From: Candidatus Poribacteria bacterium
Lineage (GTDB): Bacteria > Poribacteria > WGA-4E > WGA-3G
DNA length: 64,000 bases
Direction of reading: 5' to 3'
Assembly: GCA_963665235.2 (NCBI GenBank)
Contig: CAXXLX010000001.1
Location: 4,096,001-4,160,000, forward strand
Of the stretch, positions 49,775 through 64,000 are shown in pieces (the stretch's first letter is position 1; the number at the start of each line of letters is the position of its first letter). A program made the position numbers and the translations under genes. Under the pieces are notes generated by a model that did not search any database, was not told the DNA's origin, and saw nothing but the letters and a program-made list of their open reading frames with translations.

Positions 49775-50551
49775 TTAAGCCTTTGCGGCGGTCCCGCCAT
49801 CGACTATGAGGGCGGTACCGGTAATCCATTCGGCATCATCGGATGCAAAGAAGACGGCTGCGCGGCCGATGTCTCTTGGTAATCCTAAACGGGCAAGTGG
49901 GGTCTTTTCCAACGCTTGTTCAACCTGTTCCGGTGTGAGGTAGTCTTGAATAGCTGTCTCAATATAACCGGGGCAGATAGCGTTGACAGTTATGCCGAAT
50001 TGACCGACCTCTAATGCGGTGTCTCTGGTCATATTGACGACCGCGGCTTTTGCTGGCGCGTAAGCGGGCCCCGCACCGCCACCGTAGGCATGAACAGAGG
50101 CAATTTGAATAATCCGACCAAATTTTGAGTGTTTCAGGTACGGAATGGCGAGTTTCGTTGCGACAAAAACGCCACGCAGATTAACACTAACAACCTTGTC
50201 CCAATCAGCGATAGAGATGTCTTGTGAGCTGCCGGGAATATGGATGCCAGCGTTGTTGACTATAACATCCAGCCCGCCAAAATGTTCGACGGTTTGCAGA
50301 ATTAACCGTTGGATTTGCGCTTCGTCGGACACGTCGGTTTGGCAAAATATTCCGGTCGCTCCTAATTTCTCAATTTCTGCGACAGTTGAGATTGTGACAT
50401 TCCGCTGGTGATATTTGCCGCGAAGGGGTGTTTCCTGCTTATCTGCAATAACGATGTGTGCTCCCTCGCGCGCGAACTCAAGTGCGATGCCGCGGCCGAT
50501 GCCCGAGCTTCCGCCGGTTACGATGCAGATACGCCCTTTAAGTACCATCAA
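49775..50551 (-). CDS. SDR family oxidoreductase
   Basis: VTGGSSGIG, NNAG, YAPAK, NAICPG, VDGG. Confidence 0.93.
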   Translation of the reverse strand: MMVLKGRICIVTGGSSGIGRGIALEFAREGAHIVIADKQETPLRGKYHQRNVTISTVAEIEKLGATGIFCQTDVSDEAQIQRLILQTVEHFGGLDVIVNNAGIHIPGSSQDISIADWDKVVSVNLRGVFVATKLAIPYLKHSKFGRIIQIASVHAYGGGAGPAYAPAKAAVVNMTRDTALEVGQFGITVNAICPGYIETAIQDYLTPEQVEQALEKTPLARLGLPRDIGRAAVFFASDDAEWITGTALIVDGGTAAKA

Positions 50552-50600
50552 AGTTCTCCTTAGTTCTGGTGGATTACCGGTAGTGTTATTTGCCTACGTA

Positions 50601-50738
50601 TACCCAAGTTGCTACTTATAAGTTTTTAGACCTGGAAACACCGTCTTTAATGAAAATATGCTGAGAATTAGCTAATATTTGTCCCGTTCACTTCCAATTT
50701 GCACACAAATATGCACAATCTGGAAGATTATGCTACTA
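50601..50738. mobile_element. Partial copy of the CAAGTTGC-ended MITE
   Basis: TACCCAAGTTGCTACTTATAAGTTTTTAGACCTGGAAACACCGTCTTTAATGAAAA resembles 15223-15280; REP remnant at ~50714; no right end seen. Confidence 0.55.
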
Positions 50739-51048
50739 AATATTATATCCTATTTTCCAAAATTTCTGCAACACTCTCCGCGATACGGAGGGGTGTGTCC
50801 ACTTTTCGGAGGATCAAAGGATAGGGGCAGGAATGGAGGCGTGGAAACACAAAATGACGTGTATGTTTTTTGGAGATATGCCACCGTTATAGGCCCCGCC
50901 TACGCTCAGCCCCCAAATAACCCATCGTCATTTACAAACGGTGGAGGACTACACGGGAGATTGATACATAAGTACAAAATATTTACCACCCGCGATACGC
51001 TCCTCTATTAGCAGCGTGCCACAGTTTTTAAGGTTTGGCCGCATTGCG

Positions 51049-54000
51049 TTAGAAGAAAGAGCGTCCAAGTGAACTGCCTGCCCCGAATGCATTGTAAGGA
51101 ACACCGGCCGGTAAGGTTTGGAAACCCCATGTTTCGGTAGTTGCGTCATAACCGAGTCCCATAGAAACAGCTGACTCGTCGATGAGTGTGACTTGGAAGG
51201 TAAAATCTTGTCGGACGTTATCAAATGGCGGTTCGCGTTTAATGCCAACCCGTCTCCAGGAAAGGCGAAGATTCCAGTCGTGCAAATTCCTGTTGATACT
51301 GACGCTTTGCGAATAAAATTGTCCATCAATTGGATAGTAGATAAGACTGGCATCAAATTCGAGGTTTTTACTGTGGCGGTAGCGTCCATTTGCCGTGATA
51401 GAACGCGATGCCTGAATTGAGGTGTGCCTTTTACTGAAAGAGCTTCCGAGGCTCACGTTCCACCTTTCGCGGGTGTATCGGAGGTTCGAGCGGAGCCCGA
51501 CGACTTTGAATTGTTTGCCATCGACTGGGTGTGGGTTTGGGTCATGTGTGAAGCGCACGGTCATATTTAGGTTTCGGCTTGGGAACGGGATGAGTGTGAA
51601 ATCACTCTCAATCGGTTCGTATTTGCGTCTATATAACGGATCGAATTCGGTGAAATCGGCGGTAAGGCGGGTATCAAAATAGAAGATGCGATGTGCTTCT
51701 TGACTCCGCCGCGTCTTAATCTCAAAACTTGTGCTAAAATCGTAGCTCAACCTTTTCCGTTCATAGAAATATGTACTCGGTCCAAAGGGATAGAGCGTGT
51801 CCTCTGAGTCAACAGCGGGTTGATAATTAAAGGTAAGGGTAGATTGTATTTCGTGTCGGAGCTTTCGTGCCCCGGGGATATAACTAATATTGTAGATACG
51901 GAAAAGCGTATTGGTAGCAGAGGCTCTGATACCGTACGCCCCCCCTAAAATGTTTCTATTTTTTTCTTGGTCTTTACTGTGCCAGATAAGGTTTGTATTC
52001 AAATTCAGGTTAAGTTTCAGTTCCCGCAAAGAGGTGATAAGGAGCGTTGACTGTTTACGTAGGTCGAAACCGAGGTCAAGCGTTTGGAGGAGTACATCTC
52101 TTTCCTCACGATAAACCTGCCTAAAGAAATTTCCGAATTCAATATCCATGTCAAAGCTTGTGTCTTCAAGTGTAGGGACCCTGAGCAGTGAGAGAAAAGG
52201 TTTATCGGATTTGAGTTTTTCGGAGGCGGTTAACATTCCGGTATTAATAGTTTTAAAGAGGGGGAGTGCGCTAAAACGCATCCGTGAGAAGTTGACTGTC
52301 AATTGCGGGAGTTTTTGTAGCGAAGTCGTTCCTTCGCCGGTGAAATCGTAAACGTGTCGGATTTCCAATCTGCTGGTAATATCTCCGATAGTCTGTTGAG
52401 AATAGCGCAAGTTATCATTTTCATCAACATCTTCTATGTCAAGTGCGGAGAGTGCAGAGCCGTAGGTGAGGATACCAAAGGAGTTGAGGGTAGAGTCGCC
52501 TGGGATTTGAAGGTCTTCCTTGTAATTAAGAGCCCGCCATTCTACGCGTCCGAGAAAACTGAGCGGTTTTCTTCCCGCGCCGGGTTTACTACTGTCCCAA
52601 GGCGTATAGAAAGATTGTCCGTGTCCCCAGCGTGCATTCCACCGTCTACCGATACGGGTTGCATCTCGTCTGCTAAAGGAATATTCATCTTTAGCGTAAA
52701 AGTAGAAATCACCGGTATAGGTCCGCTTTCTATCGACTTTGATGAGGTGAAACGCCTCTTTTGTTGAAATGACTCTTCGACTCATTTCGCCGCCATATAA
52801 ACTTTGTGCTTCCGATGCAACTGGTCTCGGGTCTTCCCACTGTCCACGGAACCCGTGTTTTCGGTAGACTTCAAGCTCTTCTTCTGCTGCTTCCTCACCG
52901 TTATCTTCGCCCGGTTCAGCCGTCTCGGTGCCGTTTGTGGCAGCCGTTTCCCCTTTATCAGGTTCAGAAGGCATCGGCGTAGGCTTTGCCTCTTCAGTAG
53001 GCGGTATTACTGGCTCCGCTGGCGTTGTCGGCTTCGGCTTTTCTGGCGGCGTTGGTTTAGAGTCAGGTAGGGTGTCGGTTTCCGGCTTTTCTGTTTTTTC
53101 TTCATCAGATGCAGCCATAGCCTCTGTTGAAAAAGTTTCCCATTCCGCTTCAAATTCTTCAGCGATAGCCTCAAAAGTCGGCGTTTCCTCTTTCTTAATT
53201 AATTGAAAAATGTAAAGCCCTTCAGGGGCATAGACGGGTCGGCCTTGGGTTATGTCATTAGGTTTTTCTAGGCGTCGGACCGAATACTGCCATCCGCTCT
53301 CCATTTCATTTAGGGGTAAACCTTTGCCTTCATTGATTTCAGAGAGCGTAGCTTCAGGAAATTCAGCGGCAAGTTGTTCAAAGGTTTCCTCAGCGAGAGC
53401 GCGTTCGTGAATTTTTTCTGCTACCTCGCGTAGTGTCTCTTGTGTTTCAGTGCTTGGACTAATCGCTATATCGATGCGTCGCAGTTTAATTTCGCGTTCT
53501 CCGTAAACATCAAGGGTCCGTTCAACTTTGAGGATGTGAAAAGCGGATTCGGTTTTTAAGACGGTACTAATTTCGTCTTCTTGTAGTGCAAACGCTGTTT
53601 CTTCCAAAATGGTGTCAAGTTTCGGATTGCCCTGCTGGTCCTGTTCCCCGCGTACAAGGAATCCCATATCTCCGCCCTCGTATCGGGTGTCAGAGTGGTT
53701 AGATTCGCGCTGTGCAAGACTTGCGAAGTCAGCATTTTCTTCCGTGAGTTGTTTGAGGAGCTCATCTGCTTTCTCTTTTGCCCGGTTGACATCTTCATCA
53801 TTAATCTGATATTTTAGGAAGAGTTGCTTTAGCCAGTACCGGTCGTAATCTCCTTCAAGACGTGCTTGTAATTCTTTCGCCTTGTCCTCGAATTTTGTGC
53901 GCTGGGCGGGGGTCGCTCCTGTCGGGATGGGTATGTAGATTTCTTGAAATTGTGTATCCCTGAACCGATATTTTCCTTCAAATCCGAAGCCTTGTCCGCG

Positions 54001-54987
54001 CCGGGCACTTCTGTCGTAGAGCAGCGCGCCATCATATCTCATTTTGCGTGCTAACGGTTGGATGATGCTGAAATAGGGCCCCTGGTAGCTATCCGTTCCG
54101 ACTCTAACGATAATTTTAGCCACTTTATCTTTGCGAAGGTCCCGGCGGATAGCGGGAAAATAGAAGAGCGGAAACCCGCCAATCCGTAAGACGATGTTTT
54201 TTGCAATCATCTCCTCTTTGATTCGAACAATAACCTCGGAAACGCTAAAATGGTAATGCGGATATTTTAGCGAACAGGTAGTTAGGGAAGCCCCTCGGAC
54301 ATAAGATTTCTTATCCTCTATTTTGAAGAGTTCACTTCCCCCGAAATACCACGGGTCACTGTATGTGAATCCGTTGCGTGCGATTCCTTTTTTGGTTTCC
54401 AGGTTGAAGATAAGTTCATCAGAGTATGTCTCTTCGTCCCCGACTTTGAGGTGTACGTTGCCGGATGCGCGCATCAAATTATCGTCGAAGTCAGCCCAGA
54501 CGTGGTCGGCACGCAAAATGACATTCTCGTATTTGATAAGGGCATTTCCGTGAATTTGTACCAAATTATCCACCAAAATCACCTTGTCTCCATCCCCGAT
54601 GACCGTACCTTCGGCAGGTGTCATCTTTTCAGGGTCGAGCTGTTTTTTAGCAGGTTTCTCAGGTTTGGTATCGGGAGATTCTTCTGTCTCCTCCGAAGGT
54701 GTAGGTACCGTTTGCTCTTCAGCAGGTGCCTGCTCCTCTTGGGGCACCTGAGCACTGAGGGATACTAGTGGTAAAAACAGACAGACAATCGCTATAATTG
54801 CGAGGTGCCCAACACGATTCAACCCTATAGTATGGGATGAACACGTCACGGACGGTCCACTTGTGAACTCGCCCCGTTGCATAAACCTTATCGGGTGTGT
54901 CATTTTAGAACTAGAAAGGATATCTCCGTTTTTTTGCAAAGGTTTCTCTCTTTTGTAGACGTGCTCTCGCGAGCACAACTTGCACAA
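51049..54987 (-). CDS. lptD: LPS-assembly protein LptD-like with inserted parvulin PPIase domains
   Basis: OstA-like jellyroll (GNALIKY..LRAD..ASGNV), TTC...PHY, IGGFPLFYFP, beta-barrel strands ending in RNLHDWNL; internal FASLAQRES...GGDMG...FHILKV; true start probably later (~54902). Confidence 0.8.
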   Translation of the reverse strand: MCKLCSREHVYKREKPLQKNGDILSSSKMTHPIRFMQRGEFTSGPSVTCSSHTIGLNRVGHLAIIAIVCLFLPLVSLSAQVPQEEQAPAEEQTVPTPSEETEESPDTKPEKPAKKQLDPEKMTPAEGTVIGDGDKVILVDNLVQIHGNALIKYENVILRADHVWADFDDNLMRASGNVHLKVGDEETYSDELIFNLETKKGIARNGFTYSDPWYFGGSELFKIEDKKSYVRGASLTTCSLKYPHYHFSVSEVIVRIKEEMIAKNIVLRIGGFPLFYFPAIRRDLRKDKVAKIIVRVGTDSYQGPYFSIIQPLARKMRYDGALLYDRSARRGQGFGFEGKYRFRDTQFQEIYIPIPTGATPAQRTKFEDKAKELQARLEGDYDRYWLKQLFLKYQINDEDVNRAKEKADELLKQLTEENADFASLAQRESNHSDTRYEGGDMGFLVRGEQDQQGNPKLDTILEETAFALQEDEISTVLKTESAFHILKVERTLDVYGEREIKLRRIDIAISPSTETQETLREVAEKIHERALAEETFEQLAAEFPEATLSEINEGKGLPLNEMESGWQYSVRRLEKPNDITQGRPVYAPEGLYIFQLIKKEETPTFEAIAEEFEAEWETFSTEAMAASDEEKTEKPETDTLPDSKPTPPEKPKPTTPAEPVIPPTEEAKPTPMPSEPDKGETAATNGTETAEPGEDNGEEAAEEELEVYRKHGFRGQWEDPRPVASEAQSLYGGEMSRRVISTKEAFHLIKVDRKRTYTGDFYFYAKDEYSFSRRDATRIGRRWNARWGHGQSFYTPWDSSKPGAGRKPLSFLGRVEWRALNYKEDLQIPGDSTLNSFGILTYGSALSALDIEDVDENDNLRYSQQTIGDITSRLEIRHVYDFTGEGTTSLQKLPQLTVNFSRMRFSALPLFKTINTGMLTASEKLKSDKPFLSLLRVPTLEDTSFDMDIEFGNFFRQVYREERDVLLQTLDLGFDLRKQSTLLITSLRELKLNLNLNTNLIWHSKDQEKNRNILGGAYGIRASATNTLFRIYNISYIPGARKLRHEIQSTLTFNYQPAVDSEDTLYPFGPSTYFYERKRLSYDFSTSFEIKTRRSQEAHRIFYFDTRLTADFTEFDPLYRRKYEPIESDFTLIPFPSRNLNMTVRFTHDPNPHPVDGKQFKVVGLRSNLRYTRERWNVSLGSSFSKRHTSIQASRSITANGRYRHSKNLEFDASLIYYPIDGQFYSQSVSINRNLHDWNLRLSWRRVGIKREPPFDNVRQDFTFQVTLIDESAVSMGLGYDATTETWGFQTLPAGVPYNAFGAGSSLGRSFF

Positions 54988-55037
54988 CGCGTCATAACTG
55001 CGCGGTAATGGCTAAGCGTTTTTGAAATTACAAATAA

Positions 55038-56360
55038 TCACTCCGGTGGTTTCTGTGATGGCACCGGTTTGATTTTGATGTATGCATTTTCAAGTAGTGA
55101 ATCTGTGTAGGCAGTCCATTCCTTTTCAAAGCGTCGTTGGCGCAAAATAGTGACAATTTGCTGTTTCTCTAGTTCGGTCAATTCCGGTATATTTCGTTCT
55201 TCAAGTTTGAAGATGTGAAGTCCGGTATCAGTTTCAACGGGTTCACTGTGCTTCCCAACTGCAAGCCCCTGGATGACTTTCCTAATTTTCGGTGGGAAGT
55301 CGGTTAGTGCGCGTACGCCGAGGTTTCCGCCTTTGGCTGCGGTTTCTTTATCATCGGAATGTTCAGTAGCCAGGGTATTGAATTCTTCACCGGCTTCCAA
55401 CTTTTTGAAGAGGTCAACGATGCGTTTTCGTGCCGCCTCTATCGCCTCCTCGCTTGGAGTGAGCGGGACAGTAAGATATCGGAACGCAAGGGTTTTATCT
55501 GTTCGGGTTTCCATCATAAAAACATAGAACCCTTCAGGAGTTTCAACCGGTTCACTGATTTCGGCTGTTTTGAGTTCAGCAAGGACAGCTTGGAACGTTT
55601 TCGGAAATTTATGCATCTCTGTGAGGGAGGCTTCTATGAGTTTTCCTGCTTGCGAATTCGGATTTCGCGTTGCCTTGATATTCTGTGCAACCGTCTCAAA
55701 CTGTGTTTTATCTGTGTGAATTTGCGCCAAAGCCTTGTCGATTTTAACACGTCCAGCTTTCCGGTCAGCCTCACTCGGTTTGAATCCGACGACGATATGG
55801 CGTAAGCGGACTTTGTCGGTTTTTGTCGGAAGTTGGTCGCGGTTTTCTTCAAAAAACTTCTGGACTTCGCTGTCTCGTACCTGGAGGCGCGGCATAATAC
55901 GTCCCATGACCAATTTTTCGGTCATGAGGTTCCGTTGGCACTGCTCCCGAAATCCGATGAGGGTTGTCCCTTCCCGGTTGAGCAGCTTCTTGAATTCATC
56001 ATCGGTCTCAATTTGATACTGCTTCTTAACGTCCTGGATGTACTGTTCCACCTCTGAATCGGTGACCTCAATTTTCAGCGTCAAGGCGGCTTCAACGAGA
56101 AGCATTTGACGAATGTGCTTATCTAGTAGGGCAGCCCGTTGCTCCGCTGCCGCTTTAAGGGCTTCATCCTTGCTAAAACGGTAAGCATGTTGCAGTTCAA
56201 GGGCGCGTTGGTTGACGATAGTGTCAAGCTGCCGCTGGGTTATGATATCATCGTTGACATACGCGATGATTTTGTCAAAAATACGTGCAACCCCAGGGGT
56301 TACAAGGCTGCCGATGAGCAGTCCAATTAGTCCTATATATACAATTATTTTGGGTATCAT
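55038..56360 (-). CDS. surA: SurA-like chaperone / peptidylprolyl isomerase
   Basis: DKIIAYVNDDIIT; two parvulin domains (VRLRHIV; FNTLATEHSDD..AAKGGNLG...GLHIFKL). Confidence 0.85.
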   Translation of the reverse strand: MIPKIIVYIGLIGLLIGSLVTPGVARIFDKIIAYVNDDIITQRQLDTIVNQRALELQHAYRFSKDEALKAAAEQRAALLDKHIRQMLLVEAALTLKIEVTDSEVEQYIQDVKKQYQIETDDEFKKLLNREGTTLIGFREQCQRNLMTEKLVMGRIMPRLQVRDSEVQKFFEENRDQLPTKTDKVRLRHIVVGFKPSEADRKAGRVKIDKALAQIHTDKTQFETVAQNIKATRNPNSQAGKLIEASLTEMHKFPKTFQAVLAELKTAEISEPVETPEGFYVFMMETRTDKTLAFRYLTVPLTPSEEAIEAARKRIVDLFKKLEAGEEFNTLATEHSDDKETAAKGGNLGVRALTDFPPKIRKVIQGLAVGKHSEPVETDTGLHIFKLEERNIPELTELEKQQIVTILRQRRFEKEWTAYTDSLLENAYIKIKPVPSQKPPE

Positions 56361-56746: not shown

Positions 56747-57718
56747 CTATTCGGCCGGTTGTGTTTGCTCAGGCGGTGTTTCCTCTTCCGTTTCGGTGGG
56801 TTCATCCTCCGGAATGCGGTCAATGTATGTTTTGACTTCTGCCCGCTCGCGAAGGCGCGAGACCCACTCCTTCATGAGGGTATCGCGTGTTTGCCGTTTC
56901 ACCCGTTTCTCAACGTCCTTGCGGACATCCGCCTCATCAAAGGGTTGCTGATATTCCGCTCTGGCCTCCTCTTTACGAAAGATCATGTAGTATTTTTGTC
57001 CTTGGACTTCAACTGCAATGACACCATCATGGATAGTGTTAATTTCCGCGCTGAAAGCAGCTTCCATAAAGGGTTCAGTGCCGGGTGGATAGGAATTCCG
57101 GCTGATGTAATCGGTATCGCCTGGTGCGGCAGGATTCGCGCCGGGTCCGACCAATTCTCCTCTATCAGAGAGTTCCTGCACTGCGACTGCGATATCTTTT
57201 CCCGCTTTAATTTCAGCGAAGATTTCATCAGCTCGTTCCTTATTCTGTAGGGTGATACACAACAATCTGACCTGCTCAGGGCGGACGTAATCGGCTTTGT
57301 TTTCCTCATAGTAGCCTTTATAATCCGCTTCAGTCAAGACGAGTTTTGCGTCAACCTCCTGCGCGGTGAGTTTTTCAATCATAAGGTCGTGGAGGTAATT
57401 CTTAACCTTTTTGAGGATTTCGGTATCTTCATTCAACGCCATATCTTTTGCAAGACAGAGGATTAATCGGCTTTCGGCCATAAGCAGCATGTATTCTTCG
57501 AGCCCCGCCTTGTCTTGGTACTGACGTTGCTTATATTTGGGGAGTTCGCTAATCTCCTGCATCATCTCTTCAAGGGTGATTTGATGTTTGCCATCCCATT
57601 CGAATTCGGCAATGATAGTTTTGTCGGCACCGATTGCCTTTTCTCCACAACTGTAGAATAGGGGGTGTATGGCAAGAATCGCGATTAAAATTAGGGGTAT
57701 GCAGCTAAATTTTTTCAT
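56747..57718 (-). CDS. Parvulin-type peptidylprolyl isomerase lipoprotein (PrsA-like)
   Basis: Lipobox YSC; YYEENK..Y..PEQVRL; ADEIFAEIKAGKD; AAFS. Confidence 0.8.
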   Translation of the reverse strand: MKKFSCIPLILIAILAIHPLFYSCGEKAIGADKTIIAEFEWDGKHQITLEEMMQEISELPKYKQRQYQDKAGLEEYMLLMAESRLILCLAKDMALNEDTEILKKVKNYLHDLMIEKLTAQEVDAKLVLTEADYKGYYEENKADYVRPEQVRLLCITLQNKERADEIFAEIKAGKDIAVAVQELSDRGELVGPGANPAAPGDTDYISRNSYPPGTEPFMEAAFSAEINTIHDGVIAVEVQGQKYYMIFRKEEARAEYQQPFDEADVRKDVEKRVKRQTRDTLMKEWVSRLRERAEVKTYIDRIPEDEPTETEEETPPEQTQPAE

Positions 57719-57753: not shown

Positions 57754-58728
57754 CTACTTATCAGGCGTATCAGGTGCCTTCTCTGGTTCTTCTGGTTGTG
57801 CCGGGGCTGGAATGTTTTCAGGATAAGTTTTCAGTTTTCCTGCTTCAGAAATTTCGGCAATCCATGCGAGGATACGTTCGCGCTTTTTGGTGCGTTTCAC
57901 TTTTCGTTCAACCTCGGATTTGACTTCGTCAAACGCTTTCTGTCGTTCCGGTTGGTGTTCCTCCTTCCGGAAGATGAGGTAATAGGTTTCGTCTCGGACA
58001 TCCGTTTCGAAGACGACTTCGGTCATTTCGCCAATTTCTTGGGCGAAAACAGCCTCAATGAATTCGCTCCAATCAGGCGATGCGTTTATGTAAAAGAAAA
58101 ACGTGTTTCCGGGGTCGTCCTGGTTGGTGCCAGGTCCGTTTGCCAATTTGTTTTCGGCAGCGAGTGCTTTTGCGACCTCGATGATGTCTTTCCCGGCTTT
58201 AATCTCGTCCAAGGTTTGATTAGCGAAGTCCTCATCATCAAGCGTAATACAGGTTGCCCGTGCCTTTTCCGCCTCGACGTAGGTACTTTTGTGCTCCTCA
58301 TAATATGCAATAAGGTCCTCGTCTGTGTAAACGGTTTTTGCATCAACCTCCACTTCGGTGAGTTTCTCGACCATCAGTTGATAGGTGTAGTCTTCCATTT
58401 TTTCTAGATGGTCCGGCAGGGTGTCAAATTCTGCATCTTTGGCTTGAAGGAGTTTAAGTTTTTTGTCAATGAACTCCTCTAAAAATTCAGCCTTATCCGC
58501 TTTGGTAGCGAGGTTTCTCTGTCGGTACGGTGGCAATTCGGCAATGGCTGCGTTCAGGTTAGCGAGTGAAATCTGATGAGGCTCACCGTTCCAACTGAAC
58601 TCCGCTAAAATAATCGCGTTCTCATCAACTGTTTCCACAGCAGGTTCGTGGTTATCGGAACGTCCAAGAGACCAGGTGAGAAAACAGGCTGCGACAACTG
58701 CTACAACAACAATAATCGTTTTTTTCAC
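57754..58728 (-). CDS. Parvulin-type peptidylprolyl isomerase (PrsA-like), tandem paralog
   Basis: Paralog of 56747..57718 (AEF.W.G.HQI, CITL, EIKAGKDI, PG.T, YY.IFRKEE). Confidence 0.8.
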   Translation of the reverse strand: MKKTIIVVVAVVAACFLTWSLGRSDNHEPAVETVDENAIILAEFSWNGEPHQISLANLNAAIAELPPYRQRNLATKADKAEFLEEFIDKKLKLLQAKDAEFDTLPDHLEKMEDYTYQLMVEKLTEVEVDAKTVYTDEDLIAYYEEHKSTYVEAEKARATCITLDDEDFANQTLDEIKAGKDIIEVAKALAAENKLANGPGTNQDDPGNTFFFYINASPDWSEFIEAVFAQEIGEMTEVVFETDVRDETYYLIFRKEEHQPERQKAFDEVKSEVERKVKRTKKRERILAWIAEISEAGKLKTYPENIPAPAQPEEPEKAPDTPDK

Positions 58729-62408: not shown

Positions 62409-63257
62409 TTATTCCTTGCTATTTACGATTTCAATTTTTTCTAACGTTGCTGTCGTTTTTCCAATTTTGGTTTCCGCCTCAATTTTGATAGGGAGATGAC
62501 GCGCGTCATCGGTTAACCAGAGCTTACCCCCATCTGAGGTTCGGACCAAGAGTGTTTTGACTCTCATTTTGTTTTTACCTAAGGCTTTAGTTTCTAACAT
62601 CTCTCCTCGTTCAACCGTGAGTTCCATCTTGCGCAATTCACCTTTTATAATTAGCGGAAAGAGGTAGGTATTCCCGGGGGCTATCTGCTTAGTGCGCAAG
62701 AAGTATACCATAGATAGTTCGTCTTGCGTGCCAATTGGAATCTCTATGTCCTTTTTATCACGTTTTTCTGGCGATTTTGGATTGTTCTGCGACCGTTTCT
62801 CATATTCCGCCAGCCCTTCCCGAAAATTAATTTCAACGAAAGCTCTATACTTTTTATCTTGCACCTGATTTCTAAAACGGAGTGGATGGAATCCTACAAC
62901 GTTGAGAAAGGTAGACTGATGACTTCGAAAATGATACCATCTCGCCCACGCTCCGGTTTTTGCATCAGAACTGATGTGGTAAACTCGCTGCCCATTCCAC
63001 AACATCGTTTTCCGGATATAGTCCACCCGTTTGCCGGCTGAAATCCGTCTGACCTTGACATTGTAAGTCAACTTCTCACCCACTCGGAGGGGCTGTTCGG
63101 CAACGTTTTCAACATTAACAAGTGAAATCGCTTCCCCTTGCTGATTGCTGGATAATCCGTTTTTAGCGGCTAGGTCTGCCCGGATAACTTCGGAAATTAA
63201 CAGACTCATCCCTATTAACAGAATCAGCGTTAAGTACTTGGGATATTTCACATTCAT
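62409..63257 (-). CDS. DUF3108-like exported protein
   Basis: Signal peptide; GEKLTYNV, QDELSMVYFLR, WLTDDARHLPIKI. Confidence 0.75.
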   Translation of the reverse strand: MNVKYPKYLTLILLIGMSLLISEVIRADLAAKNGLSSNQQGEAISLVNVENVAEQPLRVGEKLTYNVKVRRISAGKRVDYIRKTMLWNGQRVYHISSDAKTGAWARWYHFRSHQSTFLNVVGFHPLRFRNQVQDKKYRAFVEINFREGLAEYEKRSQNNPKSPEKRDKKDIEIPIGTQDELSMVYFLRTKQIAPGNTYLFPLIIKGELRKMELTVERGEMLETKALGKNKMRVKTLLVRTSDGGKLWLTDDARHLPIKIEAETKIGKTTATLEKIEIVNSKE

Positions 63258-63301
63258 CCCTCCAGAAGATTACTCACTAATTTCAGGTTTCTGATTCGAT
63301 T

Positions 63302-63904
63302 TTAAAACCGGTGTGTAAACATCAGTGCATGTGTTCCGTTCAGAGTTTGTTGCATCTGGACAGAAATTCTTCGATGGTTATAGGCTTTAACCGTATGTGA
63401 GGCATCCAGAATATTCCAGACATGCAGTCCAATGCCCGTGATTAGAAAAAGCGCGCCCCGGAGACTACGATCCCTCATTCTCGCTTGAACCTGATTACTG
63501 TCTAAGAAGCTGTCTGTCCGTTCATCATAGAAGCCTGTTTGAAAAGCGTCGTGGTTTCTGTAGTGTAATGCACGTGCGATGTTGTATCCCGCCAGTGCAA
63601 AAACACCCAATTCAGCTGTGAGAAAAAGCGTGGCTTTCGTGTAATTGTCCGCATAAGCTTGCCCTAAACCGGGCATAGCTGCGGATAAAAGTGCCGCTTT
63701 TCGGGGACTCCGTTCCGGATAATATCGGGCTGCGTGTGCCCGAAAAAGTGGATACACCGTTGTTTCTGGCTCGGCGCGGGACATCTCCTGACGCGACACC
63801 GGTTTCTGCCCCTGCGGCGATGGCTCCTCAAGCGAGAATACCACGGTTGGTGTGTAAACTACGGTCAGTAGGACAATTAAGAAAAGCATGCGGTAATTTT
63901 TCAT
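63302..63904 (-). CDS. DUF5683-like membrane protein
   Basis: SPRKAALLSAAMPGLGQAY...WNILDA. Confidence 0.7.
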   Translation of the reverse strand: MKNYRMLFLIVLLTVVYTPTVVFSLEEPSPQGQKPVSRQEMSRAEPETTVYPLFRAHAARYYPERSPRKAALLSAAMPGLGQAYADNYTKATLFLTAELGVFALAGYNIARALHYRNHDAFQTGFYDERTDSFLDSNQVQARMRDRSLRGALFLITGIGLHVWNILDASHTVKAYNHRRISVQMQQTLNGTHALMFTHRF

Positions 63905-64000
63905 AAGCTCTCTTTTGAGTTGCACATTTTTAGGGCACCGCTCACTTGAATTTACAAGGTTATTTGACAGATAACGGGCCTCTGTTTTTTCAACGGGGCA

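Follow-up and report, generated by a model that had tools for sequence, protein, structure and literature searches.

LptD is essential, an antibiotic target and among the outer-membrane proteins (OMPs) most difficult to fold, and the cooperation of chaperones, the barrel assembly machinery (BAM) and accessory lipoproteins on it is still under study. A gene in a 64,000-nucleotide stretch of a Candidatus Poribacteria genome (GenBank assembly GCA_963665235.2, contig CAXXLX010000001.1, positions 4,096,001 to 4,160,000; hereafter the window) raises the question of whether an LptD barrel can have parvulin domains built into it, and of what such domains would do there. An earlier sequence-only reading had placed a nested parvulin insert at 52723-53955 within an LptD-like frame and had proposed that it serves as a built-in chaperone. 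These limits proved to be exact, corresponding to residues 345-755, and all of the strings quoted from the translation are present. The gene, here called lptD::parvulin, occupies 51049-54882 when read from the ATG of M36, with its stop codon at 51049-51051. It lies on the minus strand, as do all of the features and neighboring genes of the window described below, and residues are numbered on the 1312-amino-acid (aa) open frame (51049-54987), which reaches back to a TTG at 54987. The frame is laid out as a likely signal peptide, an LptA-like beta-taco, 4 barrel strands, a 413-aa insert (residues 344-756) and 22 further strands.

The LptD frame and its parvulin insert

An AlphaFold2 model of residues 113-1312 (mean predicted local distance difference test (pLDDT) 79.1, predicted template modeling score (pTM) 0.60) was compared with known structures. 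The top Foldseek matches were all LptD (4q35_A, 1.6e-19), and structural alignment with VIA gave Z values of 15-22 against LptD structures, e.g. Z 19.4 for 9kn3_A with a root-mean-square deviation (rmsd) of 5.4 Å over 616 residues. When the profile of our alignment A1 was searched against the PDB it recovered LptD chains 8h1r_A at 4e-35 and 7omm_A at 4.5e-34, the latter over profile positions 19-707 of 744, while LptA chains matched the N-terminal domain at about 1e-8. That domain, the periplasmic beta-taco or LptA/OstA-like jellyroll (54139-54603, residues 129-283; DSSP strands at model residues 17-171), aligned with LptH 4uu4 (Z 13.3, rmsd 2.7 over 117 residues) and LptA 2r1a_H (Z 13.1, rmsd 1.9 over 112 residues). 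Barrel strands b1-b4 (53959-54111, residues 293-343) were assigned by DSSP and by alignment to E. coli LptD. Behind the insert DSSP assigned another 22 strands, b5-b26, which end in a short C-terminal tail (51052-52722, residues 756-1312), for a total of 26. The Foldseek, profile and VIA results agree with the earlier proposal that an LptD-like barrel resumes after the insert.

Single-sequence family searches gave weaker matches. LptD_2 matched the window protein at 3.8e-4 (19.7 bits versus a cut-off of 22.5 in hmmscan), at 21.9 bits in a six-frame search and at 23.3 bits when neighboring pieces in frame were included. OstA_2 reached only 0.052, and the six-frame search gave no PF03968 match to the window lptD gene. 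The genome consists of 5.31 Mb in 4 contigs and is 92.6% complete. This gene is its sole meaningful PF19838 match and its sole LptD/LptD_2 candidate, and the genome contained no PF04453 match; as completeness is 92.6%, a second lptD copy is still conceivable. The same genome encodes an LptA-like protein, LptF/G, LpxC and LptE (C1:1970836-1971225). From the profile and model comparisons we conclude that the frame is the predicted LptD orthologue of this Poribacteria genome.

The insert consists of three predicted parvulin domains, one of which is discontinuous. Strand b1 and helix a1 of this domain (A) are followed by the complete domains B and C, and then by the remainder of A. The whole protein matched the Pfam Rotamase family at 1.9e-24 in two stretches. 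When scanned alone, domain B (53506-53850, residues 380-494) matched Rotamase (PF00639) with an E of 6.6e-18 and 65.9 bits, and domain C (53182-53505, residues 495-602), which is degenerate, did so with an E of 1.1e-4 and 23.6 bits, both above the gathering cut-off of 21.7. The two ends of domain A gave little signal in the window protein. Its first part (53851-53955, residues 345-379) forms a strand at model residues 219-241 and a helix at 248-266, and the opening piece (residues 338-400) had no Pfam match when scanned alone. The last part, comprising b2, a4, b3 and b4 (52723-52872, residues 706-755; DSSP model residues 596-657), matched only Rotamase profile positions 63-96 of 97, at an E of 0.015 and 16.7 bits (cut-off 21.7). 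The orthologous closing piece of homologue P0124, which is 47% identical, covered positions 35-97 of the 97 with an E of 1.9e-11 (45.2 bits). This match implies that the closing piece is the C-terminal two thirds of a parvulin, the first third of which (b1 and a1) precedes domain B.

Alignment of P0124 and P0126-P0129 identified, after domain C, the motifs TPxFxxLAxxYS, GGDxGY and GEVS and a strand of the form G/x-Y/F-x-I/V-hydrophobic-K-V. The middle helix of A in the window protein (TPTFEAIAEEF..., 53101-53181, residues 603-629; model residues 493-519) aligns with the canonical TPxFxxLAxxYS motif of these divergent homologues. It is followed by a disordered, acidic, Pro-rich linker (52879-53100, residues 630-703; pLDDT <50 at model residues 518-591) of 74 residues, including 16 E, 16 P and 12 T, with a net charge of -13. 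Among the window protein and its close relatives, this linker has replaced a loop of the outer domain A that reads S..GGD.G in canonical parvulins. It has no counterpart in P0124 or P0126-P0129 and is not conserved.

A second AlphaFold2 model was made of P0124, which lacks the linker (mean pLDDT 79.6). The order of elements was the same in both models, i.e. b4 and A-b1 as one strand, A-a1, B, C, the A helices, A-b2, a4, b3, and A-b4 and b5 as one strand, the disordered linker after the A helices being confined to the window-protein model. DSSP found the order of the parvulin fold (b-a3-b-a-b2) in the two models, and B and C aligned with parvulin structures at Z 12-17 (VIA). Domain B matched PrsA both in sequence (2jzv_A, 8e-9) and in structure (5tvl_C, Z 12.4, rmsd 1.3), and the B+C pair aligned with 8hm4_A, a peptidyl-prolyl isomerase (PPIase) with two parvulin domains (Z 16.8, rmsd 4.3 over 208 residues). 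These sequence matches and models indicate that the insert is made of parvulin domains, with one discontinuous host and two complete guests. The nesting had been recognized from the translation, and both the closing piece of P0124 and the agreement of the two models bear it out.

The membrane side of the insert was deduced from topology by comparison with E. coli LptD. PMC6164715 and PMC12644819 place P231 in b1, P246 in b2 and Cys724/725 in the b24-b25 periplasmic turn of the E. coli protein, from which it follows that connections from even to odd strands are periplasmic. Adding E. coli LptD (from NC_000913) to alignment A1 mapped the insertion to RYLS|QAGAG of that protein, behind strand four when the strand bearing P231 is taken as the first. 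Independently, VIA paired model residue 181 (protein residue 293, where b1 starts) with residue 230 in two barrel-only structures, 4rhb_A and 4n4r_A, and E. coli C724/C725 map to the b24-b25 turn of the window protein, which is also their place in E. coli. Because strand parity, the E. coli alignment, the residue 230 anchor and the Cys column agree, the insert is predicted to lie in periplasmic turn T2, between b4 and b5. An extracellular position was considered on account of the long turns T3-T5 and was ruled out by the b1 anchor (E. coli 230/231) and by the Cys column in b24-b25.

Turns T3 (15 residues, 52564-52608), T4 (18 residues, 52393-52446) and T5 (38 residues, 52162-52275) are enlarged, T6-T12 being 2-6 residues long, and canonical LptD relatives are gapped at the T3-T5 positions. 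T5 (b10-b11, residues 905-942) contains two helices, and T3-T5 may form a platform for the module. In P0127 and P0128, which represent a divergent Poribacteria lineage, T5 holds a fourth parvulin (Pfam Rotamase 1.3e-18) followed by a b1-a1-like piece; judged by this order, the T5 parvulin may be circularly permuted. A regular-expression measure of T5, applicable to 68 of 127 proteins, found the turn to be short in 66 and about 155 residues long in P0127 and P0128. These two probably belong to the genomes classed as 'same phylum, other class' in our phylum search. 

Assembly support and distribution across the phylum

Independent contigs from other studies cross both junctions of the insert without indels (X5 record 12, 53149-53988; X8 record 25, 52625-52919). 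X8 is a metatranscriptome library, and contigs from RNA libraries cover parts of the gene, a hint that it is transcribed. An assembly chimera, a mis-joined gene or a surface-exposed insert is scarcely credible, and nothing was found that speaks for it. The same frame was found in every one of the genomes sampled, the junctions are crossed in independent assemblies, and strand parity together with structural alignment to E. coli LptD gives a periplasmic turn. One low-depth contig joint in run X2 skips 53346-53522, with only 20 letters on one side, and was taken as a fragment of another parvulin gene.

All of the genomes sampled from across the phylum (101 of 101, from 18 genera and 8 families) contained the insert-bearing gene. 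In all 101 the matched piece spans query residue 233, ahead of the b4/parvulin junction, to at least residue 497 in domain C. A homologue search returned at least 369 proteins at E <= 1e-3. The 120 that were listed are 1229-1417 aa long and 62-98% identical to the window protein; all have Rotamase Pfam matches and 9 carry PF19838. Eight of those listed were named, and 6 of the 8 are Candidatus Poribacteria proteins, entered as 'peptidylprolyl isomerase' or 'hypothetical protein'.

An exhaustive search of 1.84 billion representatives gave 21 matches at <= 1e-30; the near-complete proteins among them have the insert, and the remainder are fragments of lesser length. Matches at 1e-27 or weaker formed a second group, made up of proteins of 630-830 aa that match residues 137-347 only. 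These ordinary LptDs are the closest relatives found beyond the insert-bearing set. Pfam analysis of 22 proteins from this search found Rotamase only in 6, LptD_N, LptD, LptD_2 or OstA_2 without Rotamase in 15, and no family in 1. Divergent members searched against one genome per GTDB species gave 9 loci, 7 titled Candidatus Poribacteria and 2 'uncultured bacterium', the taxonomy of the divergent insert-bearing proteins resting on such record titles and on the phylum search. No insert-bearing LptD was found outside Poribacteria in these searches, in which sister phyla were not searched directly. The ESM Atlas contained two clusters, of 106 and 61 members, entered as 'PpiC domain-containing protein', and the remaining matches were to ordinary LptD at 0.82. 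In one Poribacteria metagenome-assembled genome (locus L019, 5656-9316) lptD::parvulin appears as two overlapping open reading frames (ORFs) of 865 and 450 aa. A frameshift, faulty assembly or a genuine split of the gene could each account for this.

We conclude that the architecture is conserved across the phylum and unrecognized in annotation. Whether it was already common in databases has a divided answer. At least several hundred such proteins are deposited, as the count above indicates, but they are labeled as peptidylprolyl isomerase, PpiC domain-containing or hypothetical proteins. No description of an LptD with parvulin or PPIase domains was found in the titles and abstract openings of the literature on LptD, parvulins and Poribacteria. 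Because of these labels Poribacteria genomes seem to be without LptD, and the mislabeling of insert-bearing LptD is an annotation error to correct.

Possible roles of the parvulin module

The active site of a parvulin is marked by a pair of histidines. The corresponding positions of the window protein are E349/H747 in domain A, Q388/H484 in B and R504/Y592 in C, and none of the three domains has the full pair. Among 25 homologues the first position is E349 in 25, Q388 in 22 and R504 in 21; at the second, Y592 of C is kept in 23 and H484 of B in 20, and 20 have Arg in A. HMMER alignment with 8hm4 shows the H-to-Q change of domain B, and B keeps the GGD.G loop. In comparison with P0127, B is 41% identical, C 30% and the last part of A 33%, the rest of the barrel being 31% identical; by this measure the parvulin domains are as conserved as the barrel. 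Since the His pair is missing and yet the domains are conserved like the barrel, these alignments suggest that the module binds polypeptide rather than catalyzing isomerization. An array of active prolyl isomerases, acting on prolines of LptD or of clients, is improbable. Domain B, with its good Rotamase score, its retained H484 and its GGD.G loop, is what speaks for such an array, but the first-His positions hold E, Q and R, domain C lacks the second His and domain A mostly has Arg in its place.

In the models the b4-b5 hairpin continues into strands b1 and b4 of domain A, and B and C are nested after the first helix of A. This continuity and the T2 position together place the module in the periplasm, at the barrel's N-terminal side and beside the taco and the b1/b26 seam. 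With moderate confidence we favor the interpretation that the protein is an LptD orthologue with a 26-strand barrel, and that its three-parvulin T2 module acts as a binding chaperone or scaffold, likely on the translocon itself. The module would thus be a protein-binding device and not an isomerase, and its client would most likely be the translocon, either during assembly or afterwards. The N-terminal strands of LptD are added last at BAM. During assembly there, the module could hold these last-folding strands and the taco. PDB entry 9p1u, a late LptD-on-BAM state, matched the model in both Foldseek and VIA. Alternatively, once assembly is complete, it could brace the taco-barrel junction, as LptY does for the E. 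coli taco. PMC12644819 describes E. coli LptY as binding and stabilizing the taco, and LptM as located at the gate. Complex prediction of the taco (model residues 10-180) with the module (model residues 233-645) gave a score of 0.00 against a mark of 0.32, a result that counts neither for nor against docking.

The LptY and LptM precedent also fits a module that is purely a structural brace or regulator of the taco and lateral gate and has no chaperone function. T2 is four strands from the gate, the neighboring turns T3, T4 and T5 are enlarged, and the disulfide partner Cys has been lost in the main clade. The mature window protein contains a single cysteine, C238 (54274-54276), the counterpart of E. 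coli C173. Its barrel partner, C725 in E. coli, aligns at 51277-51285 (residues 1235-1237, HDW of NLHDW), where Asp stands in the window protein and in 20 of the 25 homologues that bear the insert. From this we infer that the main clade has lost the interdomain disulfide; 23 of the 25 retain the taco Cys. The canonical relatives in the alignment have Cys in the C725 column, as does P0127. We nevertheless consider a pure brace unlikely, as it presupposes contact between module and taco, and a reason for three parvulin folds in a simple brace is hard to see.

Two further columns, in b1 and b2, differ. The positions of E. coli P231 and P246 are V294 and I309 in the window protein, P311 lies two residues further along b2, and these columns are also variable in canonical relatives. 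The b1/b2 prolines are a functional motif of proteobacterial LptD (PMC6164715, PMC12644819).

The gene order at the locus is mfd, two PPIC genes, surA and lptD, such that four adjacent genes carry parvulin domains. The surA-like gene directly upstream of lptD (55038-56360) encodes SurA_N and two Rotamase domains. Between it and mfd are the paralogous PPIC (Rotamase_2) genes (56747-57718 and 57754-58728), which encode proteins of 323 and 324 aa that are 44% identical over 151 aa and each have a hydrophobic N-terminus. Locus L018 has the order mfd-surA-lptD, and two genomes that belong to the most distant families have, directly upstream of lptD, an ORF of about 440 aa with a parvulin domain. 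E. coli lptD and surA are also linked, in the opposite order (NC_000913). Derivation of the module from the adjacent surA was tested and rejected. B+C is colinear with P1+P2 of the neighboring SurA (23% identity over 298 aa, E 5e-7). Domain-by-domain BLAST gave 22-27% identity with B nearest P2 and C nearest P1, a pairing inconsistent with that of the whole-insert alignment. Elsewhere in the genome are two more parvulin genes (C1:1343184-1343510 and C1:2195792-2196055; ORFs of 659 and 332 aa), which may be PpiD-like and PrsA-like, and DUF3108 and DUF5683 genes lie upstream of mfd at 62409-63925 of the window.

This neighborhood is relevant to the main rival interpretation, in which the module works in trans as an OM-tethered chaperone or docking platform for unfolded OMPs, SurA or BAM, coupling protein and lipopolysaccharide (LPS) insertion at a single site of the outer membrane (OM). 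SurA parvulin domains bind client peptides, as the title of PDB 2pv1 (SurA P1 with peptide) indicates, and this structure aligns to the model at Z 12.7. The three domains and long flexible linker, the clustering of the gene with surA and two PPIC genes, and the gain by a divergent lineage of a fourth parvulin, in another turn of the same face, are all consistent with a platform of this kind. Its binding partner is hypothetical, however, and the continuous strands that join module and barrel limit its reach. According to PMC3747590, LptD is a low-copy protein in E. coli, which would make it a poor anchor for a general chaperone, although the E. coli figure may not hold for Poribacteria. We rate action in trans as unlikely.

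Our preferred interpretation, a module that binds the translocon itself, has four observations to contend with. Domain B is deficient in the first His only, and its catalytic activity is possible. P0127 has both cysteines as well as the module, which indicates that the module did not arise as a disulfide substitute. The insert had no match to SurA_N, SurA_N_2 or SurA_N_3 in a Pfam scan in which all three matched the neighboring gene, and the SurA core carries most of the chaperone activity of SurA. Lastly, with a free SurA and two PPIC genes encoded directly upstream, a chaperone in cis is not obviously needed. These points weigh against a translocon-directed chaperone. The original proposal is partly supported. 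The periplasmic site, which a chaperone would need, the adjacent surA and the strong SurA dependence of LptD, a notable client (PMC3747590), are in keeping with a built-in chaperone. The lack of a SurA core, of specific kinship with the neighboring SurA and of a His pair, and the presence of a separate SurA, are not, and 'built-in chaperone' is best worded as our inference. A bolder form of the idea is a cis-acting parvulin clamp that replaces SurA delivery, disulfide staples and LptM/LptY, which are separate factors in Proteobacteria, such that the largest OM barrel would be partly self-chaperoning and self-bracing. On that view the second, independent insertion at T5 in a sister lineage would reflect strong selection to have parvulins at the barrel's periplasmic rim. 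We regard this version as conceivable but doubtful.

Parvulins that are fused into the barrel and retained throughout a phylum provide a compact system in which to ask what parvulin domains do for LptD, whether folded domains in a periplasmic turn can pass through assembly by BAM, and what stabilizes the taco-barrel junction when disulfides are missing.

Gene ends and comparison with known systems

The true start is probably the ATG of M36 at 54882, because the length of homologue P0002 (98% identical, 1277 aa) fits this start. An alternative in-frame TTG (L56, 54820-54822) lies just before a hydrophobic signal-like stretch. The predicted signal peptide (54751-54822, residues 56-79), read from the sequence, has a hydrophobic core followed by SLSA|Q. 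It is succeeded by an N-terminal linker that was read in the same way (54616-54750, residues 80-124). This mature N-terminus is acidic and rich in Pro, Thr and Glu, a composition resembling that of the linker inside the insert. An Rfam scan of the entire window gave no match, and the counts from a promoter/terminator scan of 50400-55200 equaled the shuffle expectation.

The closest known relatives of the protein are the LptD subunits of LptDE translocons of E. coli, Shigella, Klebsiella, Pseudomonas and Neisseria (4q35, 4rhb, 5iv9, 8h1r, 7omm and 9kn3; Pfam LptD_N, LptD and LptD_2). Like these, the window protein combines a beta-taco at its N-terminus with a barrel of 26 strands in the same order, and it is the sole LptD homologue of a genome that also encodes the remaining Lpt pathway and LptE. 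Unlike them, it has a 413-aa three-parvulin module in T2 and enlarged T3-T5, and with one Cys in the mature protein it can have no interdomain disulfides. Val and Ile in the columns of the two E. coli prolines and an LptD_2 match below the Pfam cut-off in hmmscan are further differences.

SurA (PDB 1m5y) similarly has tandem parvulins nested inside another domain, and VIA aligned 1m5y_D with the model at Z 13.4; the linkage of surA and lptD genes is a feature shared with E. coli. In SurA, however, the host is the SurA N/C core, whereas here it is itself a parvulin and the module is covalently part of an OM barrel, with no specific kinship to the product of the adjacent surA. Membrane-held parvulins that are often catalytically degenerate are also found among PrsA- and PpiD-type chaperones and in the Bacteroides PPIase 8hm4, and PrsA parvulins are the closest to domain B in sequence. 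The PrsA and PpiD types are anchored by lipid or helix at the cytoplasmic membrane, whereas the anchor here would be a periplasmic turn of an OM barrel. Ushers (PapC/FimD) have a folded plug domain between two strands of an OM barrel. The usher plug is single and small and gates the lumen, whereas the module of the window protein would comprise three parvulin domains hanging in the periplasm.

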